The position numbers and the translations under genes are program-made. The notes under the pieces were generated by a model, which was given only the letters and a program-made list of their open reading frames with translations, did no database searches and was not told the DNA's origin. Source: Pseudogymnoascus verrucosus (taxonomy: Eukaryota). Taken from it: DNA of 64,000 bases. Positions 1-22,500 of the stretch are shown here, one piece after another; the stretch's first letter is position 1; each line of letters opens with the position of its first letter. The stretch lies in NCBI GenBank assembly GCA_001662655.1, contig KV460261.1; one strand, given 5' to 3'.

Positions 1-26
1 CAACACTCTTCGATCGGATTAAAGGA

Positions 27-1529
27 ATGGCTTCCCGACGCGACTCTACTCCTAACTCACGAAAATTGACTCCGTACGAAGAGTCAGCTCTTGTTCAGTA
101 TATCCTCGACCTAGATTCACGTGGATTTCCACCCCGGCCACAAGCTGTGCAAGAAATGGCAGACCTTCTACTCTCCAAACGAGGCGAGAGCCCTGTTGGG
201 AAGAACTGGACTACTAACTTCATTAAGCGTCGTACGGAAATCAAAGCAAAGTTTAGTCGGAAGTACGATTACAAACGAGCAAAATGTGAAGATCCTAAGA
301 TAATTCAAGGGTGGTTCTCTCTCGTACGAAACACAGTTGCAAAATACGGCATCTTAGAGCAGGACATCTACAACTTTGATGAAGTAGGTTTCGCAATGGG
401 AGTTATTGCTACTGCAAAGGTAGTCACAAGCTCAGAAGCAAAGAGCCGTCCAAAGACTATACAGCCAGGGAATAGAGAGTGGGTGTCAATTATCCAAGGT
501 GTCAATTCGTACGGATGGGCACTCCCGCCATTCATTATTTTCAAGGCACAGAATCACCTCTCAGCTTGGTATGAGGACTCAGGATTACCAGACAATTGGG
601 TGATTACGCTAAGTGAGAATGGGTGGACTTCAAATTCAATTGGGTACGAGTGGATTCAACACTTCGATCAACATACAAGCACTCGTACGACTGGAACCTA
701 TCGCCTTCTTATTATCGACGGACACGAGAGCCACCTCTCAGCTCAATTTCAACACTACTGTATAGAACAGAAGATAATCACTCTCTGTATGCTACCACAC
801 TCGTCGCACATTCTCCAACCACTTGATGTTAGCTGCTTTGCTCCGCTAAAGCTTTCGTACGGACGTCAGATTGAAACCTTCGTACGGAACCAGCTAAACC
901 ATATCACAAAGCTTGAGTTTCTCTCTGCATTTAAGGAAGCATTCAAAGCTACATTTACAGAGCAGAACATTAAGAGTGGGTTCCGAGCAACAGGACTAGT
1001 TCCGTACGAGCCACAGAGTGTCCTTTCTCACTTAAATCTACACTTAAGGACTCCAACTCCTCCTATAGTTGAGAGTAGCAATTGGACTTCAAAGACTCCT
1101 CAAACTATAAGGGAGCTTAACTTTCAAACAGAGCACATTAAGAACCGCATTGTACGACATCAGAACAGCTCTCCTACCTCAATTAATGATGCTGTTAGCT
1201 GCCTTGTTAAAGGGGCGGAAATGATGATGCATTCTGCTGTTCTACTTAAGGCAGAAGTTAAGGCTCTACAAGTAGCAAATGAACAGAAAAAGAGGAGGGA
1301 AAGGAAGCGTAAGAGGCGTATAATGCAAGGGGGTAGTCTCTCTATACAGGAGGGGGAGGATATCCTTCAGAGTGCTGAGGTTGAAGCTCAAGTCCGTACG
1401 GAGGTAGTAAGTGAGACCGCTCGGCAGGTGGGTTCTAAGGGCCGACAGCGGCGCTGTGGTCGATGTGAGAAAATAGGACATAATACCCGTACGTGCGAGA
1501 GGCGCCAGGAATCAATTGCAGTTGAGTAA
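27..1529 (+). CDS. DDE transposase (CENP-B-type HTH, DD35D catalytic domain, C-terminal CCHC knuckle); probably 5'-partial
   Basis: Motifs YNFDEVGF, LIIDGHESH and LQPLD, with 35 residues between the last two Asp; C-terminal CGRCEKIGHNTRTC. The frame is also open upstream of 27 (TLFDRIKG, psq-HTH-like), so the true start is likely before the window. Confidence 0.95.
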   Translation: MASRRDSTPNSRKLTPYEESALVQYILDLDSRGFPPRPQAVQEMADLLLSKRGESPVGKNWTTNFIKRRTEIKAKFSRKYDYKRAKCEDPKIIQGWFSLVRNTVAKYGILEQDIYNFDEVGFAMGVIATAKVVTSSEAKSRPKTIQPGNREWVSIIQGVNSYGWALPPFIIFKAQNHLSAWYEDSGLPDNWVITLSENGWTSNSIGYEWIQHFDQHTSTRTTGTYRLLIIDGHESHLSAQFQHYCIEQKIITLCMLPHSSHILQPLDVSCFAPLKLSYGRQIETFVRNQLNHITKLEFLSAFKEAFKATFTEQNIKSGFRATGLVPYEPQSVLSHLNLHLRTPTPPIVESSNWTSKTPQTIRELNFQTEHIKNRIVRHQNSSPTSINDAVSCLVKGAEMMMHSAVLLKAEVKALQVANEQKKRRERKRKRRIMQGGSLSIQEGEDILQSAEVEAQVRTEVVSETARQVGSKGRQRRCGRCEKIGHNTRTCERRQESIAVE

Positions 1530-1589
1530 GGGTCACTATATAGGGTTGTGGTGTAGTAGTAGTAGTAATAGTCACAGTTTGGTGTTTTG

Positions 1590-1632
1590 GTGTCCGACCC
1601 GCTTGTGTGTCCGACTCGCTTGTGAAATACGT
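1590..1632. repeat. Right terminal inverted repeat with two internal 17-bp direct repeats
   Basis: TGTCCGACCCGCTTGTG (1591-1607) and TGTCCGACTCGCTTGTG (1608-1624), then AAATACGT. The partner TIR is not in the window. Confidence 0.8.
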
Positions 1633-1848
1633 TACTTAAAATAGTATACACCGGGCTTACTATAAACGATGATAAAGCAGAGTGAGCAGCGAGCATAATA
1701 TGACAGCCCGATGAGTATAACATAAGATGATCACAATTCCTTATAACATTCTTTTGTGCATCACAGTTTAGGTAGGATCTATAAACTACATACATATATA
1801 TCATCAAGTCATAAACAGTAAATACAACTATAACATCATTCTTCTATT

Positions 1849-4480
1849 CTATGAAGTGACCTTCTTTACTATACCTACAACGATTTCTACGTCTTTTCCC
1901 TCCACAACCAATGTCCCATTCTTAGAAGTGTTCTTTTCAGAGGAGTCTAATAACCAACCAGAAGGCGGAGTTACCACACACTGAGTTCCCCTCGGAACCG
2001 TTACTCGAATCTGCCCTTCACTATTTCCATCTTGTATTCTCAATGACATTTGTATGACACCCGCCACTGTTTTCAAAGTAACATCAACCTCCGACAATCC
2101 AGCAAGCAGCGGCTTAACAGACCATCTCTTCCACCCCGGTTCGAGTGGCGTTAAACCTCCGAGATATTGAGGTAAAAGAAATGTTGGCCAAGTTGACCAA
2201 CCATGAGCAAGCGAAGTGTCGTGTCCAAATGGCTTACCATCGGGCTTCATTGCTTCCCAATGTGCGCCCGAATAATTTTCGTTGGATGGATCTGCCATCA
2301 TGCCCCAGACGTGCTTGATAAGTTTGATTGCCGCTTCAGGATCATTGTCAATAAAATGAGCTTCCGCTGCGAAGCCGGTCGCATAGGGGCTAATAATCTT
2401 TATCCTATCCCAACCTTCGATACCTTGGTAGGCTGTAGGGTTTTCAGTATAGTCAGATGCTAACCGATCCGACTTCGGCGGTGCAATACCAGTCGCAACA
2501 GCGTAGGCGTTCACGTCTTGGCAGATACCTAGTGGATTCGATGTGCAACTCATCTTCATGACTTGTCCTTTCTCGCTCCACATATGCTCATTGATACTGC
2601 GTTTGAGCGGTTCTAAACGGCTTGTATAGCAGTCAGTCATATGAAGCTCGCCGCTCATTGTTGCCATTGAGGCCAACGCCTCATAATACGCCATATTTAT
2701 CTTAGCAGAAGCCCCAAAGATAGGACCACCCAGGGGAAACCAATCCACTGAAAAAGAGTCAGGAAATTATTAAAAGATGGGAGAGTTTGTTACTTACTTG
2801 AAAGCGGCGGTGGCGCAACAACCAAGCCGCGGCTGTCGAGGAACGTCTCGGTGAAATGCAGAAGCTTCTCTAATTTATGCCAAACCCCACGAACAACATT
2901 CTCATCGCCGGTGTGAAGCCAATAGTCCTTGATCGCTGTGATTAGCAACAGTGAATAACTCAGAGAGTAAAATTTGTCGGTTGGTGGCTCTGTATTTTCA
3001 TCATGAAGCGGTGCTTGGGCCGGGGAAAGATTTCCCAAATATCCTCCCTCCATTTGATGGCTTGTTAGTAGGTCAATGCTACCCCGAATAGCCTCAAACC
3101 GGCCTGTCGAATAATAGAGCGATCGTCCCATGACGTATAGATCTCCCCCAAATACAGCGCGATCCCTTTTTGCACCATCTATAGTACAGGGAACCTGGTT
3201 TGTGCCAACGGCAAAATCAACCATCGTGCGTTGCTTATTTTCTGGCAGCAAGTTGTTCTCATATAAAATCTGGCCATCGGTGTCGGCAACAATTAAATTC
3301 CGGTACAGAGCTGTATAGGAAGAGGGTCCACCAAATGCGATCGATCCGGTATTGTTTGCAGCACCACCTAGGAGAGGATGGATGTTCAGGTCGTCCAGAG
3401 TCGCAACCATGTCGCCATCTATTTCTAGAGTTACAGAAGCGCCAATGGTAGAGATCTTTACAGCAATCCAGTTACCCAGATTTTCATCTCCCAATGTCCA
3501 TGACCCCCGAGGTGTGCTTGGAAACACACTGTTGACGTGTGATAACCCCTCGAATGCGGTAACCAAGCGTTTTTCGACATCCAGGGAGAATATGAGTCCA
3601 TTTGCAACCATATGAATCCCCCAGCTTGCGCCCGACTGCTCTATTAAAACATCAAATTGAACTGTTATATCGGCCCAGCGTGTGCCATATCTGCAAGGCG
3701 CCCAATGTTGACCAAAGACTCTTGTACCACTGTCTGTGACTTCCCAGCTTGGAAGCGTTTCTCCTGCCGCCATCGTGCACATCTGGACCGTCCTGACCCC
3801 ATCGTCGTAAATATTGTTCAATGCTTCATCCGAGCATCTAAATGAAGATATTATGGGTGTCTTCTGACGTAAGTCGCGGAATCCAATGACTGAAAATTTG
3901 AGCGTTGATTTGGGTGTCCGTAGGATCAGCTTTTGGTATCTTTGTGACTGTTGGGTATATCTGGCTTCTAGTCTCGTAGGCGCATCGGAAGTCTTGAGTT
4001 TATAACTTTCCCGACGGTACGTGTTCATGGCATTTGAGAACAAGAAGAATGGCCCATCGCCTGTTGTTATTAGCGTCGTCGCTCAGATCGATTGAATGTT
4101 TTTTACTCACCTTGCTCATTACCAATGCCCTCCCGGGTCTCGCTATATATAACATCAAACTCCACAGTCTCATTTTCGCTGGTTGCCGTTGATATTTCAA
4201 AAACAGGTACTCCTCCTTCACATCGTCCATAGTCCAAGATTATCTCCCCAGAGGATTCGTCGACAGTGGATATCGAGATAGGGGTGTAAACGTACCCATT
4301 GAGGAAACTATATCGTTTATCAAAAATAGCGCATACCACCAAGCTATCGTCTGTTTGAGGTTCCGACCAGAAAGAGCAAATATTTGTTAGAAATTCTTGA
4401 GAGCACGGCGTTATTCGGTTGAGCAATGCGATGAGAGGTGATGGCTTGAGGGCGTTTTGGGTGATCAGATGAGACGCCAT
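1849..4480 (-). CDS. alpha-L-rhamnosidase (GH78), 3 exons
   Basis: Exons 4480-4111, 4060-2798, 2747-1849 joined by GT-AG introns; motifs LDYG, DGAKRDR and SLAHGWST. No obvious signal peptide. Confidence 0.9.
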
Positions 4481-4765
4481 TCTCAACCTTTGGCGTGATA
4501 CTCCCACAATGCCTTCATTCGTACCGCGACTTAGGCATTATTAACTATATATTGTAAAACTATAGAGAAAGGGAGATTTGAGCTGTTTGCGTTACTGTTA
4601 ATGGCTGGCGGGGCTTCGTGCTGATAATCCGAAAGATTAACGATTAACTGGGGTCGCTATGGATCTATTTGATGTGAGCGGGACATGATTGGCAGGGGAC
4701 ATCTTCGGAACAACCGAGCGGCCCAGGAGCGAACCCATGACCCTGGTTAGTGGGTAGGGGTAATT

Positions 4766-4891
4766 GTCCACTACTCTATAAGTCCCACCGAATCTCCCTT
4801 GTCCACTTCCAACTGTCCACCTCCGACGGAAAACCACATTCGTCCCTTGCTCCCACTTTCGCCAGTCCGCCAAACCACCACACAAGTGGAC
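4766..4891. promoter_or_regulatory. Four GTCCAC/GTGGAC sites in the divergent rhamnosidase/TF promoter
   Basis: GTCCAC at 4766, 4801, 4815; GTGGAC at 4886. Confidence 0.7.
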
Positions 4892-4925
4892 AAAAATAGT
4901 GACATTGTCACAAAAGCGACCGACA

Positions 4926-7915
4926 ATGCCTCCAGTAGCACTGGAATTAGGCACCTCAACTGCATCGACGGCCTCGTTCGCCTGTCCCCAATGCCAGAGG
5001 AGCTTTAGTCGGAGAGAAAACCTTTCCCGACATCTTAGAACACGTAGGTGAAGCTTTTGTGATACTTCATTACAGCAGTGTTTTCTGCTGAGGTTTATTC
5101 CTTTTTTTTTCAGCTTGGTGCTGTGTGTAGGAGTATTCGATTCGATACAGCACTGAGGTCATACTAGTTTTGGAGCATAGCTCAAAATATATTATATACA
5201 CAGAACGCGTACAACTACTAATTAATTGGTCCTTATAGACCGATCGATAAATACACATTCTTGTTCTATATGCTCAAAAACATTCACCAGAAGCGATATA
5301 CTGAAGAGGCATGAAGCATTACACCTACGGAATGATGACATAACAAATGTGGCCGGCGAAAGTAGCGGAGTCAGTAAAAGAAGAAAAAGGGGCCTGACAA
5401 AAACTGTCATCAATGGCTCTCACTTGAACACACCGCCCGAAAACCACACTGCTCCTTCTGATGCGGTACTTCTTAGGGAGGATCATTCTCCATATGTTCT
5501 ACAACATGGCGCCGACAACATGACAAGTCACTCCATTCAAACCACCCATTCCGACCTTACACTTTCTAGCTCTCTTGAAGATACTCCAACTCAACCTGGT
5601 TTGGAGACATCTGACGCGACTTGGCGTCACGTTGCAAATCTACCGTTTGATTTTTCCTTCCTGGATCCTCCTAGCCCACACGTCGAAGGCAGAAGCATGG
5701 ACAATTGGTTCACAGGAGAATTTTACTCGGCGTTGAACGAGACTGGTATTGGTTGGGATGATGCTGATACATCTCTTGGTCAATCATCGTCAACTGATCG
5801 ATGGAATACAAGCAGAGCCAGGCAGAAACATTCTCAGCACAACAATTATCAGCCCACGAATGGTGCAACCCATGCAACGAGGCTTGCTAGGGCTACGCCG
5901 CGCAATGATCCTGCAGTGGGACATGTAAGTCGAGCACCCTCTCCACCGAATGTGGTGTCCGACGAGGATGGATGGCCGTTCGCTTGGAATCCACGGTCAT
6001 CTCAGGTTCTGAGAACCGAATTGATATCAATTGCCGGCGATGACCCTCTATTTTTGGCTCACGATCCTAAATACAACATTTCTGTTAACACCTATCAAGC
6101 TGTGATCGACTGGTTAGATTGGACACATGATCATCGCCTGGCCGAAAGTTCAACTCCTCTAAATATTCCAAGCTTGGATGTTATCAATCTATTTATCGCA
6201 CTCTTCTTTCGGCATTACCATCCTCAAATGCCTGTTATTCATCTAGCCACTTTGGTGATGGACGAAGATCTCCCTCCGGCCCTATTGGCCTCCATGGTCG
6301 TCATTGGCGCCACATACAGCCATCAAAGGCATACGAGATCATTTACCATTATGCTTCTTGATCGGGTGAGGCGCGGATTGTTGATGAATACCGAATACGA
6401 CCATGGGCTAGTGAGAGAACCTATGATTATCTATGCCTTTCTTCTAGTTTGTCATACAGGGCTGTGGTGCGGGAACAAACGTTCCTTTGAGCTTTCACAA
6501 TCTCTACGAGGGTCTGTGGTGAATTTTTGCCGGCGCAAGGGCTTTGGCAATGATTTTCCGCAAACTCCGATCCTGAATCAGAATAATACAGGAGCTAGCA
6601 GTCTCGAAATTCAATGGAGGGAGTGGGTTTTTGATGAGAGTCAAAAACGACTCTGCTGGGCAGTTTTCATGCTCGACTGCCAGTTCCCAACTCTACTCAA
6701 TTTGCCTTCCACCATTTCGCGAGGCGAATTATCATCACTAGAGTGTCCATGCGACGAAGAGTTCTGGCAGGCTCCATCATCACGACACTGGAAACGCTTA
6801 CTCGGGCCAGCCTCTGTCCCACCATCAATATCTTTCACTACTGCGCTTTCCTCTTTTATTGTGCCTCACATTGCTGATGTCACTGGGCCCGGAGGTTTAC
6901 AGAATGATCGACGAGACTTGCAGCCTGAGCTTTCTCCAATGAAGCTTAACCCATCGAGCCAATTCATTGTGCTTCTTGCGATATTAAGTCAGCTTTATGA
7001 ATATTCTCAAGAAGTAGTACTTGCAGGAAAGATTTGTGGTGGTGATGTTTCGTACGACAATAGAGATGCAAATGACGACTCTACTGTTACCACAGAATTT
7101 CATAGGGACGCCGCGAACCAAATGAGAGAAATGCTAAGTGGTCCTTCAGAGACAGAAGGATGGGCCATCTGGAAGCATCTTGCCAAAAGAAAGATGCAAC
7201 TATTAGGTAACAGGCCCCAACTCCCTTCTTATATTATCACATGTCGCAAAGACGGTTGTACTAACATCCTATAGAATCACTTAACAGATGGAGCGAAACA
7301 TACAATCACTATTCAAAGAATATACCGCGACCATCCAACGCGTTGGATCATTTCCAAGAATCCTCTATCCTGCTCTATAATCTTGGTCGACTACTCCTCG
7401 AGATACCACTCACCGACATTCAGAATGCAATTGGCAAATCTGGGCCTTCAAAGATTCCTGAAGCAATGTCAAAGGTATCAAATTGGGTCAGAATGTCTCC
7501 GCAGTCGCTTGATGCGGCATTGCTATGTATAGAAATAATTGATTCACTCGCACCAGTCAATCACAACTCATCCGCCGACAAACACTCGACTGTGAGGTAC
7601 AGTGTCCACAGCATCATAACTGTCTTCCTCTGCCACATCACTCTTTGGGCCTTCATCAATGTCGCGCGAAGAGAACAAAAACAGGGGCTCATGCATTTGA
7701 TAGAGATTAATGATAAAATAAACTCCGGTCACTTTACTGCGGTAGTAAAGAGGGGTCTAATCGAAAATAGCGAAGATGCCCTGAATTGCATGGTGTCCTC
7801 GTCTGATGCTTCGAGATTGATATTTCGAAGTGCATCAGAGGTCCTCACACGCATGAGTACTTGGGGTGCAGCTTTGGATTTGGCTGTCTTGCTATATAAG
7901 AGAGCCGAAATGTAA
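4926..7915 (+). CDS. Transcription factor with two C2H2 zinc fingers and a fungal-specific TF (Fungal_trans-type) domain
   Basis: Exon 1 4926-5043 (missing from the ORF track) encodes MPPVALE...CPQCQRSFSRRENLSRHLRT; intron 5044-5238; second finger CSICSKTFTRSDILKRHEALH; central FFRHYHPQMPVIH...ESQKRLCWAVFMLD...CPCDEEFW; intron 7207-7274. Confidence 0.9.
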
Positions 7916-8253
7916 TTGAGGCCCATATTATTTCTTCATTTATTATATTAAGAAGATTAAAAAAAGAAATCTGTTGAAATTATTGTTTCGCAATCCACGT
8001 GGGGAAAGAAACTGTTGCAGACCGGATTGAAGTTCCGTCCAGTGACTGTGGTCGGGTGAACGGGCATGTAGCGCCATCGGAAGCCATCGCACCCATGATT
8101 TAGATCCGATATCCTTTCGGCACATCTTACAGCGACAGACTCAATTAAAGTATGAACGAGTGCAAATCATTTCGTAAACATAGCTGCTGCAAAAAGCAAC
8201 GTCTGCTTTAATTGGTACCACTCTGGCATAACATGACGTCCAGCAAGAAAAGC

Positions 8254-8317
8254 GTCCACATAGATGTCCACTTGCGGGCCCTGTAATTGTCCACCTCGGC
8301 CCGTCTTTGATGTCCAC
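8254..8317. promoter_or_regulatory. Four GTCCAC sites upstream of the MFS transporter
   Basis: GTCCAC at 8254, 8266, 8289, 8312; several SYGGRG (CreA-type) hexamers follow at about 8340-8480. Confidence 0.7.
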
Positions 8318-8679
8318 TCGCCGCCTCCACCTCTAGTTGCCCCGCGTGCAGGTTAGCTCGTCTCGATTTCTCCATTTCCTCGATTTCCCCACAAACCCCG
8401 CCTCTGGGGTAGGTTTTGTCTCATCCTTGTTGTATTCCGGGGAGGGTTCTCAATGCAATTCTTCAGTAATTCTCCGCACAGAGCTCTCCCGTGTCTACAA
8501 GTGGCGTTGCTTGGGGGTTGTTCAACGTGACAGTGTAGATGTCAGTTGTGTGCTTTATCAAGGAGCTATATCTGCTGCTGTTCCTACTCCTTATATCTCA
8601 TGTCGACACAGAGAAGGGACTCACATTGAAGCACTCATCTGATCTCTAAGTTAACCCAGCCTCAATAAATCTTTTTACA

Positions 8680-10681
8680 ATGTCAACATCGATAAAGGGG
8701 AAAGACGACACTGTTGTTGAGATGGTGGAGAACTCCCTTTCCAACTCCCCTTCCAACTTGGATCAAAAGGCCGAGGAGCATGAATTTATGGAGGCTGAGA
8801 ACCAAATGACCTTGTGGCAAGCTGCTGTAGCCCACAAGCGTATCCTTCTCTACTGTAAGTTGACCAACCAATACTGTGTATTAACCATATCCGATCCATA
8901 CCTACGTTGGTTGGGCCTTGGGACTACAGCGCTGACATGAGATTCAGGCATTGTGCCCTATCTCTGTGGCATGACTTATGGTTACGACGTTATTGCAAAT
9001 GGAGCGACCCTCGCGATGCCTAGTTTTCTGATCTACTTTGGAGCTTTCGACTCGGCTGGCAATCTTTTTATTCCTTCCATCTGGACCTCTCTATGGGTAG
9101 CTATGACCAACCTTGGCCAAGCCGTTGGCTCTTTCGCCGGCGGCCCTCTTGCACATCGCTTCGGCCGTCGATATGTCATCATGGCCTTCTCCATTGTGAG
9201 CATTGTCGGCGTTTCTCTCCAGTTCACTGCCACAACTAGAGGCATATTGCTCGGGGGTAAAATCATCAACGGCTTTGCCGTCGGTGGGTTACTGGCTGTG
9301 GGAACGACATATGCATCAGAGGTAAGGATGTTCAAAGACCACCGCACAACAGGATCGTTTTTCTAACGAGATAGGTTGCCCCACTTCGTCTACGAGCGCC
9401 AGTTCAGCAGGGCTTGGTCTTCTGCGCAGTAGTTATGCAAGGTTGTGGGTTGGGCGTCATACGAGCATTTGTAACAAGATTGGATCCCGCTGCCTTCCGC
9501 ATTGTGTTCGGGCTTCAATGGGTCGTTGGGTCATTGCCCTTACTTGCATTCTTCATACCAGAGTGAGTGCGGAATCCAAAATACACTCAACCATTCCCTC
9601 TAATTCTCTCCCTCAGATCACCCACTTGGCTTCTTTCTCGTGGTCGCACGGATGATGCAAGGGCCTCGTTGAATCGTTTATACAAGAAGAACAATGTTGA
9701 GTTACGCCTAGATGCGCTACAAGCCACACTGACGGCTGAGACGGCTGGCGAGAAAGAAGGCTCCTTTATCGAGTGCTTTAAGGGCACAAACTTGAAGAGA
9801 ACTGCTACAGTGTCCCTTCTGTTTTTCGGAAGTGGTGGCCTAATCGGCGCGTCTTTCCTGAGTCAAAATATCTATTTCTTGCTTACTGTAGGTCTGGAAG
9901 CTGTGCATTCTTTCGACATTGGCATCGGAGGGTTCTTTTTGGCTTGTGTTGCTATTGCCATTGGCTGGTTTTTTACAGATGTCATTGGCCGAAGAACACT
10001 CTGGCTTGTTGGCGTCTCTGGCAATGCTGTTGCAATGGCGGTGATTGGTGCTCTGTCATTCGATTCCTCGAGGGCTGGACTTTGGGCCATCGCTGTCTTG
10101 ATGTGAGTCGCTAACTTGTTACTTATTCAGTATTGTCTTGAGCGCATAACTAACGTGTCATGTAGGAATGTCCTCATCTCGTTTCAAATCTACACCTGCG
10201 TCTCGACCTCCTGGACTATGGCGCCCGAACTCTCCTCATACCGCTTACGACAACATACCCAATCGTTCGGCTACATCATCCAGGCACTCTCCTCGTGGTT
10301 TTTCCAATTCATCGTACCATAGTTAGTATTCTCCATGTCCTTAAAGTCCCTAGGAGGTGGTTACTGACCTGGGTTTCAAAGCATGTACAACATCGACAGC
10401 GGCAATCTAGGAGCTAAAACCGGATTTGTTTTTGCTGGTACCAGTGTTTTGCTCTTCTGCATCTCGTGGTTCGTAGTTCCCGAGACATCTGGGCTTAGTG
10501 TCGAAGATATTGGTATGTTTATCCCTCTCCTTGCCACGTTCCGAGTCGACGGATCATCATTCACTCCACCAAAAACTACACAGGTCTGCTTGCTAACACA
10601 AACTTTACAGATGCCGCATATATTGATCGCGTATCGCCGAGGAAGTTTCACCTTAGAAGGCAGGCGGCCATTGGAGTGTAA
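8680..10681 (+). CDS. MFS sugar porter (maltose/alpha-glucoside permease-like), multi-exon
   Basis: Motifs YGYD, RFGRR, TYASEVAPLRLR, PESP, IGRR, ELSSYRLRQHT, GNLGAKTGFVF, VPET; about 7 exons; last exon 10611-10681 ends in TAA. Confidence 0.9.
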
Positions 10682-11158
10682 ATGGGGCCATAGTGTAGTT
10701 TATATAATATACGCCCTTTGATCTATCATACTTAATCCTTCCGTACACTTGGAGAAAATCAATACACTTTACAGGCAGCCAAAGAATAGCGTGACGTGTG
10801 AATGTGATCATAGGAACAAGCACCCAAACCACGAAGGATATTCACATGGGTGATCAGCATGGCAGTAAGATATTCAAAGGGTGTCTTAATTTAATTTCTA
10901 TATGGCTTCATTAACTCCGGTCACATAACGTTCTACGGTTTGTACAACTCATTACTTCAACCATATATACTGTAAAGGGTTTACTGTCTTTCTAATGCAG
11001 AACAAAACTGCAGAAAGATAACACTTTCGAGACATTACCAACTCGTAAGCCGCCCCTACCAGCCAGCAAGCACGGTTATGCTGTTACCCTTAAGTGAAAT
11101 AGCGACATTGTCTCCTTCCGTTTATAATTGATAACATCTTTGAATATAAATATGTAAC

Positions 11159-12398
11159 CTAAAAAATGACGAATTCTAGCTCCTTTTGCAACCCTTCAAG
11201 CTGCTTCTCATCCCATCCAGTCAAATCTCCAGCTTCCGGCACAACCACCCACTCAAATGGACTTCCTGTCCCTGTGAGGACTTCTCCTATTCCACCTCCG
11301 TTCGCGAAAACATAATACTTCGCAGCTACGCTATGGACCGCACACCTCCATTCCGACTCAGCTGGTATGAAAACCGTCTCCATGCTCCCCACTATGGTTT
11401 GCTTCCCATTAATAACAACGCTCAGTAAGCCCTCTATGACTTGTATAACATGGTGCGTCTTCTCGAACTTAAATGTCGTCTTCTCGAGTCCCTTCCCATC
11501 GTGCAACTTCGAGCCCTCGACACAATATATCGAAAACTTGCCATCTGACTCCTTTCTTGTGGCAAGAGGTCGCACAATTGTGCCACCAGTAGCGAATTTT
11601 GGACCGGTGTCTGCCTTGAGGAAATATCCTCCAATCTCGCACACCCCCGGGAGTTGGGATTCCGTACCATCCCAGGGTTGTGGGTCGAAAGAGGCCTTCT
11701 CGCGCACGGGAACCATATCAAATTTATCGGTTGCAGCGATGAGTTTGGGGATGAGGACTTCGAATGGGGAGCGTGAATCGTGGGTGGGGAAAAGAGGCCC
11801 TGAAAAGGGCTCGCCGACGAAGCGGAAAAACTAGGCAATGAATTAGTTGCACGTAGTTTAAGAACAATGGGAGATTCTAGGGGGTTAGATGACTGGAGAG
11901 ATTTCAGGCAGTGCTGGATATTGGAATCTAGTTGACAAGGGCACATACTTCTTCCCAACCACCGGGGATTATAAGCCCCACGAACTCAGTGTGAGCAGAT
12001 GCAATTTGGTATTGATGGACTGTGTTCTACATTGAATTAGCGATGTATAAAAAAATAGAATGAAGAATAGTATATCAAAGACGACTCACAGGTGGCACGC
12101 TTGCAAAATCTCCTGGACCCAAAGATCTCGCAGAATCATTCGCCCAAACGTTAAGCGTTCCCTTTAAGCAGAGAAACACATCGTGTGCCTCTCTGTGATA
12201 ATGGAAACCAATTGGGTTATCAAACGTTCCGCCAGTGCCAACAACAGCAAATGCGTTGCTTGTCTCTTTCGCTGTTGCGAGGAGGCGCATGGTACTCTTT
12301 GAGGTCGGGATAGTCCATAGCTCCCCAGTAAAGCAAGGGAGTTTGTATGGAGTAGACGAGCCCGGAGGCGTAGTGAGAGTTGGAATCGATTCGGACAT
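11159..12398 (-). CDS. Quercetin 2,3-dioxygenase (quercetinase)-like bicupin, 3 exons
   Basis: Cupin motif 1 GFHYHREAHDVFLCLKG, motif 2 GDFASVPP/NTVHQYQI, then GLIIPGGWEE-FF; second cupin with VFIPA and GGGIG. Exons approx. 12398-12090, 12026-11950, 11830-11159. Confidence 0.8.
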
Positions 12399-12597
12399 GG
12401 CTTTAGTGTAGTTAAATTAATTTCAAATAAAAGTTTGGTATGAGACTCCAGAATCTCGGCTCTACTTATTATTTTGTAGAGTATGCGAGATTCAATCGAA
12501 GGTCAAGAGTACTCGCACCTATATTCGTCAACGCTGTCATGGCCCTGTGGTCTTCGGGTTTCGGGGCTTCGGGACCCTTGATTTCTGATAGACCAAT

Positions 12598-12718
12598 GTG
12601 GACTACCACCATCTGCACCCCCGTCCAATGCCAAGCAAATAGATTTATGTCCACTTCTGGGATTCCCACCACAGATGTAACAATGTGGACTACCCCCGCA
12701 AATCGTCTAGATGTCCAC
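12598..12718. promoter_or_regulatory. Four GTCCAC/GTGGAC sites in the divergent quercetinase/esterase promoter
   Basis: GTGGAC at 12598 and 12685 (both within CAATGTGGACTAC); GTCCAC at 12649 and 12713. Confidence 0.7.
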
Positions 12719-12945
12719 CTTCAAGCTCGACGCTTCACCCCCAGCAACGGCAATTGTCACGGCAGTCTGAACCTAATGCACGCCAGTCGTCTGTTATACA
12801 TCTATTCGCGTTTAGTTTATATAATTTATGCGACTCTTTTTGGTCAGTGAGAGAAGCTGTCCCGAAATTTGGTCTCTTAATGAAGCAAGTCCCATGATAC
12901 TGACTTTATCGTTAAAATAATTCGATCTGGCCATCCTCGAGCGCT

Positions 12946-13968
12946 ATGGATACCATCGCGAAATTTCCGAGCAAAGCAATTGCTTCTATTTTTATGCCAA
13001 CAGTGGAAGCTTTCAAGCCCCTCCTTCTGGCGAATAAATCCGAGATTCTTTCAGTTCCTTCAACAACTTACACCTATGGACAACACAAACGGCAACAATT
13101 AGACGTATACGAAGAATGTACCAATTCACCATCTTCACCCATTATCCTCTTTTTCTACGGCGGCGGGCTTAACAGAGGCGACAAAATTATGCCTCTCGTC
13201 CCATCATCGCTAGTCTATCACAATTTCGGTGCCTTCTTCGCCAAGAGGGGCTTCACCATGATAGTTGCCGATTACCGTCGAGTCACTGATGTAGCCCTGG
13301 GCACAGGCGAAGATGCCGTTTTCCCATCCGGAGGCGAAGATGTGAGAGCCGTCTTAGACTGGCTCGAATCCACGTATCTACCGTCTTGCGGTGATAAGGC
13401 CCAAAAGAAGCGCGACGTCTTTCTCATGGGCAATTCTGCAGGTGGTGTACACGTTTCTACGTATCTCTTGGATGCGCGTTTTGAGAATCGGAGATATGCG
13501 CTCCGACAATCTCAACTCTGTTCTTTACGCGGCGCTGCATTAATAAGCGTCCCTTTCGATTTTAAGGCGGCGACCCCTGACCGATCCGAGATTCTTCAGA
13601 CTTATTATCCTCCACATTTATCTGGCACGCAGCAAGAATCATCTCATGATCTGTTCTGTCCAAATGGTCTCCTGCGAGCTTTGAAGACCAGAAAGGAATC
13701 AATGGGGACGCTTGAGATTGCACGTAACGGTATGCCGGATATTTTGGTGACGTTGGGGGAATTTGATCCCGAGGATGAAATTGTCGAGACGAACGATCGA
13801 TTTTTTAGTTTATGGGATGACTGTTTTGGGAGCGGACAGGGAATAGAATTGAAGCGGATGGGAGGACACAATCATATTAGTCCGCCATTCTCGTTGATGT
13901 GTGGTGATAAAAAGGCAGAAGAATGGGCAGAAAATGTGGTTGAGTGGATGAAAAACTTGCAGAATTGA
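12946..13968 (+). CDS. alpha/beta-hydrolase (HSL/carboxylesterase-like)
   Basis: FFYGGG oxyanion motif, ADYR, GNSAGG nucleophile elbow, GEFD and GHNH; single exon, 340 aa. Confidence 0.9.
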   Translation: MDTIAKFPSKAIASIFMPTVEAFKPLLLANKSEILSVPSTTYTYGQHKRQQLDVYEECTNSPSSPIILFFYGGGLNRGDKIMPLVPSSLVYHNFGAFFAKRGFTMIVADYRRVTDVALGTGEDAVFPSGGEDVRAVLDWLESTYLPSCGDKAQKKRDVFLMGNSAGGVHVSTYLLDARFENRRYALRQSQLCSLRGAALISVPFDFKAATPDRSEILQTYYPPHLSGTQQESSHDLFCPNGLLRALKTRKESMGTLEIARNGMPDILVTLGEFDPEDEIVETNDRFFSLWDDCFGSGQGIELKRMGGHNHISPPFSLMCGDKKAEEWAENVVEWMKNLQN

Positions 13969-14159
13969 AAATGAGATGGTCGAAAATACTATAGATTAAG
14001 ATTATTATGCAATATCTTAGACTAGAGTTTTAATAAAGCATAGCAAAATTTAATCAAGTTCATGGTAAAGTGCTTTTGCATCTCCCTAGAATACTAACTT
14101 GTCACTTCTAACATTCGAGTTGCCCTCGGAACATCCTTCTTTGCCGGCCTCGGCGTCAT

Positions 14160-14200
14160 GTCCACTTCCCGTCCACGCTCAATCCGCTCAATACGTCCAC
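14160..14200. promoter_or_regulatory. Three GTCCAC sites upstream of the FAD monooxygenase
   Basis: GTCCAC at 14160, 14171, 14195; CCCCAC/CCCCGC (CreA-type) repeats follow at about 14244-14335. Confidence 0.65.
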
Positions 14201-14674
14201 TTACATAAAGGCGAAGAAGGCTAGATCATGACCTTCTTAGCACCCCACGATCTCCCCACAAACTCCCCACAAACCCCACACCCTCTACGTACTCATCTAG
14301 ACCAACCCGGGTGGTTCGGTGCTAACTTCCCCGCTCTGCGGGGTAATCTATGCATTATCCGCCGGGGGAGCTTGCTGGAGCTCGACGACGGCTGGATAAG
14401 TAAACATATGGTCAGCAGCGGATGGTGGATCGTGAGAGCATGGGAGCTTTAGGGTTTTGGATAGTACGCCAAGTATTTATGCTCGGCATTCTTGTTCGGC
14501 ATCATCACCGCGACCCCTCATATTTGTATTCATTTTGCCCTTGTTGTTTTCACTGTAGCTTTTCTCGAACTTGGGATAAGGAACACAGCACCTTACATAT
14601 TCGACAAATATATTTCAGCCTGTCTTGGACGTGAACCGGCAAGCAAGCCCAGGACCGTTGTGTAAGAATAACCC

Positions 14675-16306
14675 ATGCCTCACCTCCAAATAATCGTCGT
14701 CGGCGCCGGGCTGAGCGGCCTCAGCACAGCGATCGCATGCACAATCTCCGGCCATTCCGTTACCGTTATCGAATCGGCATCTGAACTACAAGAGGTAAGT
14801 TCCCCTCAATCCTTCAACAGATTATATCTTTCAAACCCGCTAATTGTTCCACAAGGTAGGCGCAGGACTCCAAGTAACACCAAATGCCACGCGCCTCTTG
14901 AAAAAATGGGACCTCCCCGCCTCCTTCTGGGCCACAGCCGCCGAACCAACATTCCTGGCTGTGCATAGATACTCTGATGGCAAAGTATTAGCCATGGAGA
15001 AAGATTTCAATACAAAGATTCGCGACAAGTACGGTGCATCCTTTCTCGATTTCCACCGCGTCGATCTGCAACTAGCCCTATACCAGCGCGCCCTCGCCCT
15101 CGGTGTTAAATTCGAGTTAGGCCAAAGGGTGCAATCAATCGATTTTGACCTCCCACAAGTTACCACAGCTTCCGGGGCGAAGTTCTCATCGGATCTTATT
15201 GTGGCTGCCGACGGACTGTGGTCGCAAAGTCGAAATTGCTTTCTGGATGTCAAAGACGCGCCTCTACCAACCGGTGATCTGGCATATAGAGTTGTTCTGT
15301 CATTAGACGATATTGAAGACCCTGAGCTGAGAGAATGGGTGAGCAACCCATCGGTGCATTTCTGGATTGGTCCAGGAGCTCATGCTGTTGGTTACTCGGT
15401 GCGTGCGGGGAAGATGTATAATATCGTCCTACTTGTTCCGGATGATCCTCCAGAGGGTGTTAGTCGGCAATCTGGTTCGGTGGAGGAAATGAAGGTCCTT
15501 TTCAAAGACTGGGATCCTATGTATGTCACAGATCTCTACATGCTTGATAACGCAACTGGACATCGACTAACTAACCCTTTAGCCTCACGCGATTCCTAAA
15601 CATAGTGCAAACGGTTGATAAGTGGAAATTAATGCACCGTACGTATATCAATCCTGAGCTCTGTTACTCTCTCTAACTCACTTCATAGGAAGCGAGCTAG
15701 ACTCCTGGATCAACGACAAATCAACCTTCGTCATGGTGTAAGTACCCCCCACCTCCTCCTATATCCTCATTTCTAACAGTAAAACAGCGGCGACGCATGC
15801 CACCCTATGCTCCCCTACCTCGCCCAAGGCGCCAACTCCGCCCTCGAAGACGGCGCCGTCCTCGGCCATCTCCTAGGCAAAGTTAAAACCCGTAGCCAGG
15901 TACCTCGAGCCTTGAAATTATACGAACAGTTGAGGAAAACTCGCGGCGAGGCGGTTGTGAGGGAGACGTTTAAACAGGTATTTTATTTACCCCCCTCCCC
16001 CTTCCGCGATCAAAGATGGATGTCCCTGCTTACGAGTTTTCCACTACAGCGCGAGTCTTTCCACATGCCGAATGGCCCGGACCAGGAGGCTAGAGATGAA
16101 TTATTTCTCTCGCAACTGGAGACTGGACTTACAGGGGAACCATTTCCTAGTAGATGGTAAAGCAGCTTTTTCAATTCTCTTCTAATTTTCGAACTAATTT
16201 TATCGATAGGACATGCCCTCAAGTTCAACCCTGGTTGTATAGCTACGATGCATATGAGGAAGCTGAAAAGGCATGGACCTCAGGCTCTAATGCTGAAGTA
16301 CTATAG
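14675..16306 (+). CDS. FAD-dependent aromatic monooxygenase (salicylate hydroxylase-like, group A flavoprotein), multi-exon
   Basis: VVGAGLSG, EVGAGLQ, ADGLWS, GDACHPMLPYLAQGANSALEDG; last exon TCPQVQPWLYSYDAY...TAG at 16304-16306. Confidence 0.9.
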
Positions 16307-16572
16307 TCCTTAGTAATCAGTGCCCGGCCTAGATCTAGGGAATTTACTTTCTTAATAGGAATATTTATTAGTATACAAAATATATTTACAGGCTTGTTGA
16401 ATATGTTCCAGCCTAACCACTAATATTACTCATTTGTAGATGGGCCTATAAGGACACAGGGCACCACTTATAATAAATAGGATATAGGAGTGCAAGTCAG
16501 ATAGGTTGTAGTATAATCCTATAGGTCTACTATAAAGGATATAAAAAAGATAAAGGGGGATCGCAATCATGA

Positions 16573-16830
16573 TAACGCGTTTCGTCACCGAGCGGCACAC
16601 TTTTCCCGCGTGGTCCCCTCTTCCAATTTCCACACACTATGCCTCTATAACAAACAATGGCATTCCAAACCTAAGAAGGATCATCTCAGCCATCGAAGCT
16701 ATCCGATCATCAATAAAAGTAAGCATCCGAAAAGACTATACGCTATACGAGGTACCTGAAACATCCGTCCGCCTCAAAATGAACGGCCAACCCCCTGGAG
16801 CTGAGATCCGCACCAATGGAGAGATCTATC
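16573..16830 (+). mobile_element. Degenerate 5' fragment of a second pogo/Fot1-like element
   Basis: TA then ACGCGTTTCGTCACCGAGCGGCACAC (TIR-like), followed by a psq-HTH-like peptide AIEAIRSSIKVSIRK...LYEVPETSVRLKMNG; no catalytic domain follows. Confidence 0.6.
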
Positions 16831-17470
16831 GCAAGATCTGGTTGGATCCGTGAGGCGTGATGGCTAACTCAGCTGAATTGGGTAGAGTATATATATGTTC
16901 CGGCCCAAACATATATATATCTGAAATTTAAAAAAGAACTTGAATCTCCCCACGAGAGCATAGAATTGTGACATTCTAAATAAGGAATTAAATGTATTTA
17001 ATGCTCCGTGCATACACGGCCGGTTGAGTCGAGATTCGTGCTCAGAATGATGTCAGATGCTCAGTTGGAGGTCAGTTGCAGGTCAAATGGGCACCTGACG
17101 TCACTCTGATAGAAGCCGCCATCAGGCCATATTTAACATCCTGAGCAGGGCTACTATGTAATAAGGGGAGAGTTACGCAATGGCAGTTTTTTGTAATTCT
17201 CTAAATTTTGATTAGTAGCATATGCTTTTGTTACTAGCTCATTTTCCGTTCGGGATTGTGACGCAATAATTACACCCTTTCACCATAATTTGGCACGGCG
17301 AAATGGAGCGGTGGCTAGAAGAAAAGAGAGGCGCGAGGACCTACCATGGTAGTGTAGTCGGATATTTAGCAATGGCTTACATATATTGATAGCACAGCGC
17401 CATGCTTTATCGTCCAGCTAATCTCATTCTTGCTCAGATAAAGTTTCCTCTGATAATTGCAGCCTGCAAT

Positions 17471-19559
17471 ATGTCTACTCGATCGCCCATGCCATCTTTT
17501 TTTATTTTATGCTTACTTCTCTCAATAATTAACGGTAAATCCTTTGAGATTATCTTTATAGATAAATAGTATTTAATAGTTATTACAGGAAATATTATGT
17601 TTCCGGGACGTTCGCCTATGGACGTAGTTGCTGTGGTTGACCCTGCCGCTGCTAACTTGGCCGCTTGGAAACGAGCAACTATGCAAGCACCAAACAATTA
17701 TGCTCCCGCAGCTGTCGATTGTCCCTCGACACGACCGACGATAAGACTTGCTGGATCGCTCTCAGACAACGAGACAGCTTGGTTAGAAGTTAGGCGAAAC
17801 AACACGATTTGGGCAATGCGGAACTTCCTTGGACGCGCAAACATCACAGGACTTGATACCAATGCCTACATCGACAACATTGCTCGTAACGCTAGTGAAT
17901 TACCAAACATTGGCATTGCCATCTCTGGTGGGGGTTATAGGGCCTTGATGAATGGTGCCGGCGCTCTTGCAGCGTTTGATAATCGGACTACAAACTCAAC
18001 CAATCAAGGTCAACTGGGAGGCCTTTTACAAGCTACAACATATTTAACTGGACTGTCTGGAGGTAGCTGGCTAGTTGGAAGTCTCTATGTCAATAATTTT
18101 ACGTCCGTACAAGATATCATCAATACGGGTTCCTTGTGGCAGTTCGATAATTCTATTCTTAAAGGTATTACTTCAGCTTGAGAGAACTATTTTAGGCTAA
18201 TAGATGGTCTGCAGGACCAACTACTTTAAGTACCACAGATTACTACAACACTCTTTACAATGATGTCAATAGCAAAGCCGACGCTGGGTTTAACACTACA
18301 ATCACGGATTACTGGGGACTTTCTTTGTCTTTTCAGTTGGTCAACCCTACCAATGGCGGTCCAGGTATGGAAATGATATATGGTTAAGTGCATAGCCTTA
18401 ACATGCCGCAGCTTACACCTTCTCATCTATCGCCGATGACCCAGGATTCGCAGCTGCCAATGAACCCATGCCTATCATAGTCGCTGATGAAAGAGCACCT
18501 GGCCAACTACTAATCCCCGCCAATACCACCATATACGAATTTAACCCCTGGGAAATTGGGACATTTGATCCCACGACGTTTGGATTTGCCCCTCTTCGTT
18601 ATGTGGGCTCCAATTTCAGCGGCGGTGTTCTCCCTCCCAGCGAAGCATGTGTCCGAGGCGTTGACAACGCTGGCTTTGTTATGGGGACGTCATCTTCGCT
18701 TTTCAACCAGCTCTACCTAACGGTTAATGCGACATCTGGTGTTTCAGACAGAGTTAGGAGTTCAATCAGCAATATTCTTCAAAATGTTGGTGAAAGCAAC
18801 AGTGATATCGCAGACTGGCCGAACCCGTTCTATGGTTATAATAACAAGACGAACCTGAACTCTCAGAGCAAGAGTCTGACTCTCGTGGATGGCGGCGAGG
18901 ACCTTCAGAACATTCCTCTCCATCCTCTACTTCAACCGATCCGCCACGTTGATATTATCTTTGCAGTTGACGCCTCAGCTGACACTTCTGCGAATTGGCC
19001 AAATGGCACCGCAATGGTGGCGTCGTTTCAACGGTCACTTAACACCTCGCTGGAAAATGGCACGGTATTTCCGTCTATCCCAGATCAGAACACTTTCATC
19101 AATCTAGGACTGAACACCCGTCCGACGTTCTTTGGATGCAATGCCAGCAATATGACTGGACCAAGTCCTCTCATAGTGTATCTGCCGAACCATCCATATG
19201 TATACTACTCGAATGTCTCAACCTTCGACCTGAGCTACAATAATACGGAACGCAATAATATCATCCAAAATGGCTACGATGTAGCTACGATGGGCAATGG
19301 CACTGTGGATGAACAGTGGCCTACATGCGTGGGATGTGCAATTCTATCCAGAAGCCTGAGTCGGACTGGGACCAACGTTCCTGACGTCTGTGCTCAATGC
19401 TTCAATAGGTATTGCTGGAATGGTACTGTCAACTCCACTACACCAGCTCCATATGAGCCAATCACTGTTCTCAAGGTTAGTAGTAGTGTGAGTCTCGTTA
19501 GATATATCCCCTTTACGCTTGTAGTAGTATTTAGTACATGTCTACTTTTAGTATTTTAA
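17471..19559 (+). CDS. Lysophospholipase / phospholipase B, secreted and probably GPI-anchored
   Basis: Short first exon with hydrophobic signal ([11 protein letters not shown]); SGGGYRA, GLSGGSW and VDGGED motifs; hydrophobic C-terminus; introns near 17534-17588, 18164-18213, 18363-18410. Confidence 0.93.
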
Positions 19560-22500
19560 GTCATAAGAATATAATCTATCTTAATACATGCTACCAAAGC
19601 CTGCGACCACCAGTCATGCTGCTGTGGCGCCACGTTGCGCGTCGAATACACAAGAGTGGTTAATTGATTTGGCACTTGAGGCAACATGGGGTGGGGTATA
19701 CGCTCTAATGCCGAGCTGGGAAATGTTTTGTATTTATCCCATTTCCTCACAGCAGTCATATCGTCGCTCAAAATCAGAACTCGGGGTGGGGGGGTGGAGG
19801 AGACGGCGAGGAGGGCGTATCCGTATCGCGGGGTTGTGGGGGGGAGAGGGTGGTGGTGGTGTATGGATATGATATTGGGAGGTGGGCATTTAAGAGGTTA
19901 AGAGGGGGAGGAGGTGGGGTTGAGGATTGATTCTGGGTGGGGGGGGGGAGAGGGAATCGTGGCGTCTGGGGATTCTTAGTCCCGTGCTGGTCTTGTGGTG
20001 TGGGATTTGCCTAGAGGGGGGAGGGGTGTACGTTTTCATTCATGCTATGCTAAGCTGAAGCACTTATAAGGCGGAGTGAACGGCGTAGACCCAGTTCTCA
20101 TCTATCCGGGATCGTGTCCGTAGCTATTTAATTTATATAGCTTTATATAAAAGTAGTCCGAATTTTTAAAAATAGTTCAGCTATAAAAATAAGAAATTTC
20201 GTCAATTTTGAAATGAAACTTCATAACTGTCTCTATATTTAATAATAACTGCGGAGAGGATATAATATAACCGTGCCTCTCATGTCATTAACTTCTAACA
20301 GTGATGGTTGTGCCTACAACAGCCACTGATTCCACTCTGGGCCAGGAAATAGGCCTGTCTTCCATCTCGATACAACCACCAAGATATTATACACGCATGC
20401 CAACTACAAGTCGAAATTCGCACCACCCACCCACATCCACATACCTTTAATCAAAATTTACCATATCATCCCCTTCCCCTCCATCCATCTCTAACAGCGA
20501 TCGACACACACCGCAGCACATCGGCATCCCCAAAATTTAACCTCCGCGCCAAGATGCCATCAACCAAGCTTCAAATTACCCGCCGCCTCCGCCATCCCCC
20601 GCAAACTGGCTTCAGTGATATATTATATTACTGGTATATCACTCCCGACTCTCGACGTCGTATAAGAAGTTTTCGACTTTTTGTATTAGTATATCAGTAT
20701 TCAGTATATCAGTATAGCACCACTGATTACTCACACTTGAATATCTGCTCTCTGCTCCCTCTGTGGATTAGACGTCCGATCTCTCGACAGATACAGCAGC
20801 GCAGTACAGCTCGTCGCACGTGGTTAAAATGACAGACCAACTCCCTCAAAAGCGTCGAGACATACAAAACCTCCGGAAAAACCTCGTACGCCCCCGTTCC
20901 ACCCCTCTATCCCCCTTTTCCTCTCCCCCTCCCAACCCCGCCCCCCCCCTTCCATACCATCCCAACTTTACCCCCCCAACAGAAAGAAGAAACCACCCGT
21001 CTCGCCACAGTGCACACCGCCCCAGTAGAGAACGCGCACACGCAGGTCGCAGAGATGGAGACAGATAGAGTAGTCAGTGAGGCGAGAGAGAAGGAGGAGA
21101 AGAGGAGGAAGAGGAATAGGAGGTTGAAGCCGTGGATTGATAGGATGATGGGGATTGGATGTGCTACTTAGCTGTGTTTGGGGTTGGGGGGGGAGGGGCG
21201 GGTGGGTTGGGCTTGGGGGGGTTATTTGTGGTTTGGGGAAGGGTTGAAGAAGGAGGGAGGAGGGAAGGGGGGTGTTGGGAGGAAAAGGGGGGGGGGGGGG
21301 TTGATGTTTGGGTTTCATATGCGATGGGCGGTTGAGGTTGAGAAGTCGAGGGTTGAGTTGGTAGAGAGAGGGGGGAGGAGTTATCCAAGACACAGTTATC
21401 AGACTCGGAGATGCAATATCATCAACCATCATGAGGGTGTTTGTTTCCATGCCGAACTATCCGTTTATACCATCCCAAGTACCCTTTGCGCGATTACCAC
21501 TTCATATTCTATCCAGCACCCATCATCATCATAGCCATCACCATGGCCAGACCATTCCATACCCCACGACCCCAGCACCGGCACTGAGGCATTTGCACCC
21601 CCATTCCAGTTTGCGGGGTTTTCGCCCTCCTCGGCGTGCCGTCTCTGCCGCTCTTCCATCTCTCTTGGCACCTTCTACGCGTGGGGGGCACACTACTTAC
21701 CATCACCGTCTCACTCATCGCGTCACGATACTGTTTGGTGCCTGCATACAACACTTTGCCAACGGCTACAACGGACCTGACACAGTGGCGGTGCAACGTC
21801 GCCAAGCTGTCTGGACCCGTATGTATGTATGTGTCGATCCTTCGTGGCGCGGCGTGGTGGTGGGAGTGGGGCGTCTGTGACTAGACGGTCTGGCGGCGGG
21901 AGGGGATAGCACGGGGATAAGCCGTCCTTCCTTCTACAGTGTTGAGCAGTGGATGCATGGCCGGGGTTGAGCACAGGAGTGGAGCACAATAGAAGAAGAG
22001 TGAAGCACTTCCGCGGCTTCGTGGGGGTTTTCCTCCACCCAAGAAAGTCTCTCGTCGGGCAGGATAGAACCGCATCAGTCCGCGCCAAGACGGCGAGCTG
22101 AACAGAACAGCAGTAAACGGGGTGAAAGCAGTGGGGAAAGCTCGGATGCGAGACGCGGATTGGGAGGGAGACGTTCAGCCTTGTGGTCAGTGCTATCGTT
22201 TGTGCATTGCTGGTGCGAGCTGTGGGGTGTGGTGTTGCATCGAGAGGTGCTGCGCCACGGGGACTATTGGATGTGGATCGCGGTGGTGGGTGTTGGGGGC
22301 TAAACGGACGGGGATGGGGCGATGTGATGGGTTGGATGGATGGGGGGTGGGAGTGTGGTGATGTGATGGGTTGGCGTGGATGGGTGGGGGAATTGAATGT
22401 GATGGGCTGGGTTAGGATGGATGTGAGTGAGTGGGAGTGTGATGGGACATGATGGGCAGTGATTGATTGATGCGTGCAGGGAAGTCTCCGTGCAAGGAAG

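Follow-up and report, generated by a model that had tools for sequence, protein, structure and literature searches.

Six adjacent genes at positions 1849–16306 of a 64,000-nucleotide stretch of contig KV460261.1 of the soil fungus Pseudogymnoascus verrucosus (the window) were analysed as a putative gene cluster for flavonol catabolism. All six were intact and were modelled from canonical splice sites without internal stops. They encode a GH78 alpha-L-rhamnosidase-like protein (1849–4480, minus strand; 843 aa, two introns), a two-finger C2H2/Fungal_trans transcription factor (TF; 4926–7915, plus strand; 908 aa), a sugar porter of the Sugar_tr family (8680–10681, plus strand; 526 aa, six introns), a signal-less bicupin with a quercetin 2,3(2,4)-dioxygenase fold (11159–12398, minus strand; 352 aa, two introns), an intronless BD-FAE-like alpha/beta-hydrolase proposed as a depside esterase (12946–13968, plus strand; 340 aa), and a flavoprotein (FAD) monooxygenase proposed as a 2,4,6-trihydroxybenzoate 1-monooxygenase (14675–16306, plus strand; 427 aa, six introns). 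Pfam families agreed with the six labels given in the original prediction, and all six models were free of stops. An NCBIfam scan gave no name above cutoff for any cluster protein scanned.

Splicing was checked against contigs of four public runs from one study of a close relative, taken by guess to be RNA. These contigs bridged 13 of 18 predicted introns (porter, 5/6; cupin, 2/2; monooxygenase, 6/6). Neither the two GH78 introns nor the two TF introns were bridged, and both genes had almost no contig cover. Splicing of the porter, cupin and monooxygenase thus follows the models; the contigs bear on splicing and not on regulation or expression.

Cupin fold, metal site and localisation

The cupin shared 99% identity with a named Pseudogymnoascus protein of equal length. 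Its solved relatives were all quercetinases (best sequence match Bacillus YxaG, E 2e-41), as were the top ten Foldseek matches to its structural model (pLDDT 91.6), with TM scores of 0.87 to Bacillus 2h0v (YxaG) and 0.74–0.78 to Aspergillus japonicus entries including 1gqg (0.78). The next families listed by Foldseek, other bicupins, scored about 0.5. Sequence, model and Foldseek search thus agreed on a bicupin quercetinase fold, and a bacterial fde/naringenin A-ring route was set aside because the cupin matched C-ring quercetinases. A metal motif was located in the N-terminal domain (H66, H68, D73 and H107), and the second cupin domain was without it. With Asp at position 73, the protein is a 3His/1Asp variant and not a canonical 3His/1Glu quercetinase. 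All 32 aligned sequences shared this Asp, as did 33 of 33 locus motifs (the motif was not matched at 7 of the 40 loci) and 69 of 69 motif-bearing proteins, whereas all solved quercetinases aligned here carried Glu at that position.

Signal peptides were judged by N-terminal hydropathy and not by SignalP. The cupin scored 0.58, and values of at least 1.8 were reached by 0 of 32 members of its clade versus 13 of 13 Glu-type relatives. In a quick tree, the signal-less clade (54 rows) had as its sister group a Glu clade of 12 rows whose N-termini are hydrophobic; the motif-bearing rows of the signal-less clade were all Asp-type but for one long-branch Glu row. By hydropathy and by its separate clade, the cupin does not belong with the secreted quercetinases, and the claim that it has no signal peptide was upheld. 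When a secreted-type quercetinase was used as the query against this genome, the window cupin was the sole match. The cupin very probably cleaves a flavonol, and the enzymes of the route are in all likelihood cytosolic.

Secreted fungal Cu-quercetinases (Aspergillus japonicus 1JUH/1GQG, Penicillium olsonii, Sclerotinia SsQDO and Botrytis BcQdo) have the same two-domain bicupin fold (TM 0.74–0.78), the same three His and the same expected order of glycosidase, dioxygenase and esterase. Unlike them, the window cupin has no signal peptide, carries Asp for Glu and lies among clustered genes with a common motif. The Botrytis member of its clade is BCIN_05g03410; the studied BcQdo (Bcin08g05000, as given in part of PMC9597437) is a different gene and was rejected as the orthologue. 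Bacillus subtilis QueD/YxaG and Streptomyces QueD are cytosolic-type enzymes like the window cupin, but use 3His/1Glu, and in YxaG both domains carry the motif, which the window cupin has in the first only.

The literature already contains a cytosolic fungal quercetinase. VdQase (VDAG_02532) of Verticillium dahliae, overlooked in the original prediction together with the Glu-to-Asp change, is signal-less and has the same H-x-H-x4-D motif (PMC4462102, supplement), and is listed as cytoplasmic in the relevant part of PMC8120277. Rutin, quercetin and naringenin are its inducers, and more flavonol remains unconsumed when the gene is knocked out (PMC4462102, passages on VdQase); the same passages hold no remark on the Asp site and name no esterase or monooxygenase partner. 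VdQase is a visibly divergent relative of the window cupin. Its gene is annotated as a TF fusion, and a maltose-permease-like gene lies two locus numbers away. A search for long fused cupin forms returned 1 protein of 7,723 candidates, with VdQase not among the returns. In three database entries (P0291, P0284 and VDAG_02532) the cupin is joined to an adjacent TF or ligase. Such fusions are probably annotation artefacts; re-annotation has split the A. terreus gene.

The Asp-type cupin was also found at eleven bacterial loci (L075–L085), including Rhizobium, Sphingomonas, Acidobacteriota and Gemmatirosa. Ten of these were scanned for neighbours within 5 kb (105 of 212 open reading frames, ORFs), giving a BD-FAE esterase in 7, an FAD monooxygenase in 6, a glyoxalase-type dioxygenase in 4 and an FAH gene in 3; the operons also hold LysR genes. 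No match was obtained by tblastn between the bacterial and fungal monooxygenases. As judged from these comparisons, bacteria and fungi have the predicted pathway logic in common and not the monooxygenase gene, and the bacterial 3His/1Asp bicupin operons are possibly an undescribed flavonol operon.

Esterase, monooxygenase and sugar-module genes

The esterase carried YGGG, GNSAG at 162, EFDPE at 272 and GHNH at 307, the motifs of a Ser-acid-His hydrolase, and GxSAG and H[NA]H were present in 95 of 111 homologues. Its PDB matches were generic esterases. N-terminal hydropathy was ambiguous (1.84), and homologues aligned from residue 1 or about 10. Its linkage to the cupin makes a role as the depside esterase quite likely.

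The best PDB matches of the monooxygenase (8gsm, 8x38 and 8r2t) were decarboxylating 4-hydroxybenzoate/vanillate 1-hydroxylases, with E values of 4e-107 for the orthologue at locus L007 and 3.5e-48 for the window exon. Decarboxylating 4-hydroxybenzoate 1-hydroxylases are thus its closest solved relatives. Its hydrophobic N-terminus is the GxGxxG FAD motif. Relative to 8GSM, 8X38, 8R2T, PhyA and VhyA, it falls in its own cupin-linked group with distinct motifs; members of this group were 58–66% identical, compared with at most 49% for the paralogues in its own genome (seven loci examined). Both halves of the depside are 4-hydroxybenzoates, and 2,4,6-trihydroxybenzoate with its carboxyl replaced by OH is 1,2,3,5-tetrahydroxybenzene.

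To grow on 2,4,6-trihydroxybenzoate, A. nidulans depends on the DUF3500 pathway, whereas AN4576, the gallate monooxygenase, is dispensable (PMC10832562, sections on this substrate); another monooxygenase must therefore exist, and these sections assign no gene to it. Table S5 of the same paper places the quercetin 2,3-dioxygenase-like ATEG_08219a of A. terreus side by side with a TF, monooxygenase ATEG_08220, a major facilitator superfamily (MFS) gene and DUF3500 (ATEG_08219a–08222); neither 'quercetin' nor 'flavonoid' appears in its main text. Peptides derived from primers for ATEG_08220 (LTRFLS) and AN7684 (WTCPKV) fitted the cupin-linked group better than the paralogues of this genome. At two loci from close relatives (L027 and L028), DUF3500 directly followed the cupin. 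The only DUF3500 match of the present genome was on contig C5, beside another monooxygenase; this region (about 351–359 kb; L047 and L048) also holds MFS and C2H2/Fungal_trans genes, an arrangement with the architecture of a gallate cluster. Twelve intradiol dioxygenase matches were obtained, all on other contigs. The window cluster did not show the gallate-type set of DUF3500, FAH-like and short-protein genes with a monooxygenase; compared with the A. terreus and gallate-type loci, it is without DUF3500 and has GH78, a porter and an esterase in addition. The description of the cluster as self-contained was not sustained, since ring cleavage is encoded on other contigs; it is proposed as a feeder to the tetrahydroxybenzene pathway and not a member of it. 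The monooxygenase is a candidate for the unassigned 2,4,6-trihydroxybenzoate 1-monooxygenase, and its neighbours favour, by a little, the A-ring acid as its main substrate.

The GH78 protein had the Bac_rhamnosid6H and C-terminal domains and the motifs DGAKRDR, HWE and SLAHGWS, to which we presumptively assign the catalytic acid/base roles. It showed no evident signal peptide; its N-terminal hydropathy was 1.36, and its first 50 or so codons were without homology or transcript support. It may act on flavonol rhamnosides; family membership does not fix the substrate. The porter orthologue resembled sugar and maltose permeases, which is taken as a lead only. That the porter imports the glycoside is predicted at even chances, and import of rutinose instead is equally open.

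Matches to GH1 (17) and GH3 (23) domains were found in the genome, and GTCCAC, the motif of the cluster promoters described below, was counted upstream of 27 of these matches elsewhere in the genome. A GH3 gene on contig C67 (about 146.7–149.9 kb; L129:5744–8887) had five copies upstream, three of them in the form AAGTGGACA and lying 262–398 bp ahead of the start codon; the background of this 8-mer was 0.02 per kb. The gene splices to an open 852-aa model, and its N-terminus was not signal-like. Genome-wide, the pair pattern of these sites occurred in the C67 GH3 and porter promoters only, with one control match and with the spacing chosen post hoc. On the opposite strand, a fragmented kinase-like frame has the same sites upstream of it, and the 40 cupin loci contained no GH3 like the C67 gene. 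The C67 GH3, located away from the cluster, is a candidate for membership in its regulon. A GH1 gene on contig C6 (about 367.2–368.3 kb; L130) had three GTCCAC copies upstream, one of them a full TGTCCACTT, a weaker case than the C67 GH3. The original prediction had held that quercitrin fits better than rutin, as the cluster has no beta-glucosidase. This preference was not borne out: the argument against rutin falls because a signal-less GH3 encoded elsewhere carries three copies of the motif.

Linkage, promoter motif and cluster borders

Linkage was assessed at 40 loci from metagenome contigs, found by a scan with the cupin alignment. An esterase orthologue was present in 20 of these, head-to-head with the cupin every time. 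Among the 21 loci with at least 2 kb of upstream sequence, the esterase was found in 16 and the porter instead in 2. Cupin and esterase are each present in one copy in the 30-Mb genome, and their adjacency in half of the loci is therefore far beyond chance. Esterase-linked loci were scattered across several branches of the cupin tree, and the cupin and esterase locus tags were consecutive in annotated Coleophoma, Cudoniella and Clarireedia. At the Helotiales-type loci L012, L013, L020 and L035, KTI12 adjoined the esterase–cupin pair; here KTI12 is on another contig (C42, L073), which places the pair at a different site in this genome. A monooxygenase orthologue was found in 9 of the 40 loci (58–66% identity in the eight near-full-length ones). 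GH78 orthologues (49–50% identity, versus 27% for the single own paralogue compared) were identified at L031 and L040, and porter orthologues (44–51%) at L031, L032, L039 and L040. At L031 a monooxygenase, a different BD-FAE esterase, GH78, the porter and the cupin were all together. Outside Pseudogymnoascus, linkage of GH78 and porter is apparently confined to one Dothideomycete-like lineage among the sampled loci. Linkage of the sugar module was far less widespread than that of the esterase and the monooxygenase.

GTCCAC was the top 6-mer of the four cluster promoters. Four copies were present in the GH78/TF divergent promoter (4481–4925; at 4766, 4801, 4815 and 4886), four in the porter promoter (7916–8679, plus strand; at 8254, 8266, 8289 and 8312), four in the cupin/esterase divergent promoter (12399–12945; at 12598, 12649, 12685 and 12713) and three in the monooxygenase promoter (13969–14674, plus strand; at 14160, 14171 and 14195). 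These 15 copies in 2,462 bp compare with 16 in the remaining 61.5 kb of the window and with zero in three control intergenic regions. Across 300 shuffles, all non-trivial 6-mers stayed at or below 9 copies. The window as a whole had 31 copies of GTCCAC where 32 were expected; the signal is a concentration in promoters and not a window-wide excess. In nine Leotiomycete-type loci, which are not independent of one another, the 800 bp ahead of the cupin contained 1–5 copies (25 in total versus about 2 expected). A close-pair GTCCAC pattern gave 23 genome matches versus 2 for the reversed control. The other close-pair sites (17 loci, 68 of 100 ORFs scanned) had no clear aromatic-catabolism theme, and short pairs are therefore not specific to this regulon. 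The TF has finger sequences RRENLSR and RSDILKR, which by our working reading of the zinc-finger code would recognise approximately GTG-GAG, near the observed GTG-GAC. The C2H2 factor probably drives the gene set through TGTCCAC(T/C) sites, to which its binding is predicted. By conserved linkage and a common cis-element, the genes form a metabolic gene cluster, with co-regulation predicted.

A Fot1/pogo-type DDE transposon (1–1640, plus strand), outside the cluster, fills the start of the contig and marks the left border of the visible cluster. It has an open 508-aa frame and 48 genome matches, the long ones at 77–92% identity. The left border is uncertain, as genes beyond the contig start are invisible. 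To the right of the cluster lies a lysophospholipase gene (17570–19559), followed by a long C2H2-looking factor with no Pfam match at the cutoff used (24919–27681), a NACHT-type gene and then ankyrin-looking repeats (38260–40578 and 37570–38241), and a questin-oxidase-like gene (45382–46618), all without apparent tie to the cluster. GC content was 42–50% over the cluster region (1–20000), versus up to 62% rightward (21000–64000).

Proposed pathway and alternatives

Gene content, fold, linkage, motif and splicing together make it fairly probable that the locus is a co-regulated, cytosolic flavonol-catabolic cluster. In the proposed route, the porter would import a rhamnosylated flavonol glycoside and GH78 would remove the rhamnose, the weakest step; with rutin, the glucose that is left could be taken off by the motif-bearing cytosolic GH3 from elsewhere in the genome. 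The 3His/1Asp bicupin would then open the flavonol C ring with O2, giving CO and a depside, which the esterase would split into the B-ring acid (protocatechuate from quercetin) and 2,4,6-trihydroxybenzoate. The monooxygenase would hydroxylate C1 of the latter with loss of CO2, yielding 1,2,3,5-tetrahydroxybenzene, the ring of which would be opened by the DUF3500 pathway on another contig. The part of the original prediction that described a conserved, co-regulated and apparently cytosolic dioxygenase–esterase–monooxygenase flavonol route thus stood, and its self-containment and its choice of quercitrin over rutin did not. A bolder reading, at somewhat less than even odds, is that a widespread and largely unnoticed cytosolic 3His/1Asp quercetinase family of many ascomycetes and of bacteria heads a dedicated flavonol pathway, that the linked monooxygenase (probable orthologues ATEG_08220 and AN7684) is the unassigned 2,4,6-trihydroxybenzoate 1-monooxygenase and channels the flavonol A ring into the tetrahydroxybenzene pathway, and that in Pseudogymnoascus the TGTCCACT regulon adds whole glycosides, rutin included, by way of the GH3 encoded elsewhere.

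Several observations weigh against the proposed route. Of the 40 loci, 2 had GH78 linked to the cupin and 4 had the porter, with a Pseudogymnoascus-like fragment (L004) in addition; 3 of the 21 informative loci had neither esterase nor porter; and no homologue of the TF was found in any of the 40 related loci, where other factor types were present. Of 28 loci examined, 12 had no GTCCAC within 800 bp upstream of the cupin, and the DUF3500 locus L047 had one copy in 10 kb. The six-residue peptides suggest orthology of ATEG_08220 and AN7684 to the cupin-linked monooxygenase only weakly. The VdQase gene is annotated as a TF fusion, and the activity of VdQase was assayed in mycelial extracts showing three isoforms (PMC4462102, passages on VdQase). 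The engineered Glu-to-Asp swap E76D left Streptomyces QueD marginally active (PMC4416304, section on this variant).

This near-inactivity, and the invariance of Asp where every aligned solved quercetinase has Glu, would suit an Asp-type cupin with another substrate or reaction (a 3-hydroxy-4-oxo heterocycle or a non-flavonol phenolic) in a cluster degrading some other rhamnosylated aromatic, as would the induction of VdQase by naringenin, which is not a flavonol. We consider this improbable: the partner enzymes fit a CO-releasing cleavage to depside and hydroxybenzoates exactly, knock-out of VdQase changes the use of rutin and quercetin (PMC4462102, passages on VdQase), and the Asp clade has the secreted Glu-type enzymes as its sister group. 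If the cupin acts on flavonols, the monooxygenase could still work mainly on the B-ring acid in the manner of PhyA/MNX1 (protocatechuate to hydroxyquinol, or 4-hydroxybenzoate to hydroquinone), with the rest of the route unchanged. Its solved relatives use 4-hydroxybenzoates or vanillate, Aspergillus PhyA performs this reaction on protocatechuate, and the original prediction had left either aromatic acid possible. General routes for such acids are nevertheless present (12 intradiol dioxygenase matches and 7 other monooxygenase paralogue loci), and the repeated DUF3500 linkage points to tetrahydroxybenzene, which is not obtainable from protocatechuate; a B-ring substrate is accordingly held to be rather unlikely.

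The sugar module admits the most credible alternative, still an unlikely one, in which an extracellular diglycosidase frees rutinose, the porter imports it, GH78 splits it and the aglycone enters separately. The permease-like porter orthologue, the maltose-permease match of the porter near VdQase, the listing of rutinose among A. flavus rutin products (PMC8120277, relevant part) and the usual occurrence of the cupin–esterase–monooxygenase core without porter or GH78 are consistent with it, but a motif-bearing signal-less GH3 would then be superfluous. A chance neighbourhood of unrelated catabolic genes beside a transposon was rejected as scarcely credible: the transposon at the border and the TF without linked homologue would suit it, against which stand the conserved linkage, GTCCAC in all four promoters and the five matching functions at L031.

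The chemistry of fungal rutin breakdown has long been known. A literature search, mainly of open-access sources, found neither this cluster described as a flavonol pathway nor an account of the Asp site, and no gene for the depside esterase, the fate of the A-ring acid or the 2,4,6-trihydroxybenzoate step. Quercetinase may be among the anchor families in the supplements to a survey of fungal phenylpropanoid clusters, with a possible bearing on novelty. In the bioRxiv text of the survey (10.1101/184242), the word 'quercetin' does not occur. The kind of pathway is known and its parts were published separately; what is new is a set of directly testable gene assignments. The cluster offers single testable candidates for the depside esterase and the A-ring acid step, together with a naturally occurring Asp form of a metal site that is almost inactive when engineered in the same way. 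Plants use flavonols in defence, and the compounds are also a carbon source in litter. With uncharacterised orthologues in Botrytis and other Helotiales, fungi whose secreted quercetinase has been studied may also possess a second route inside the cell.

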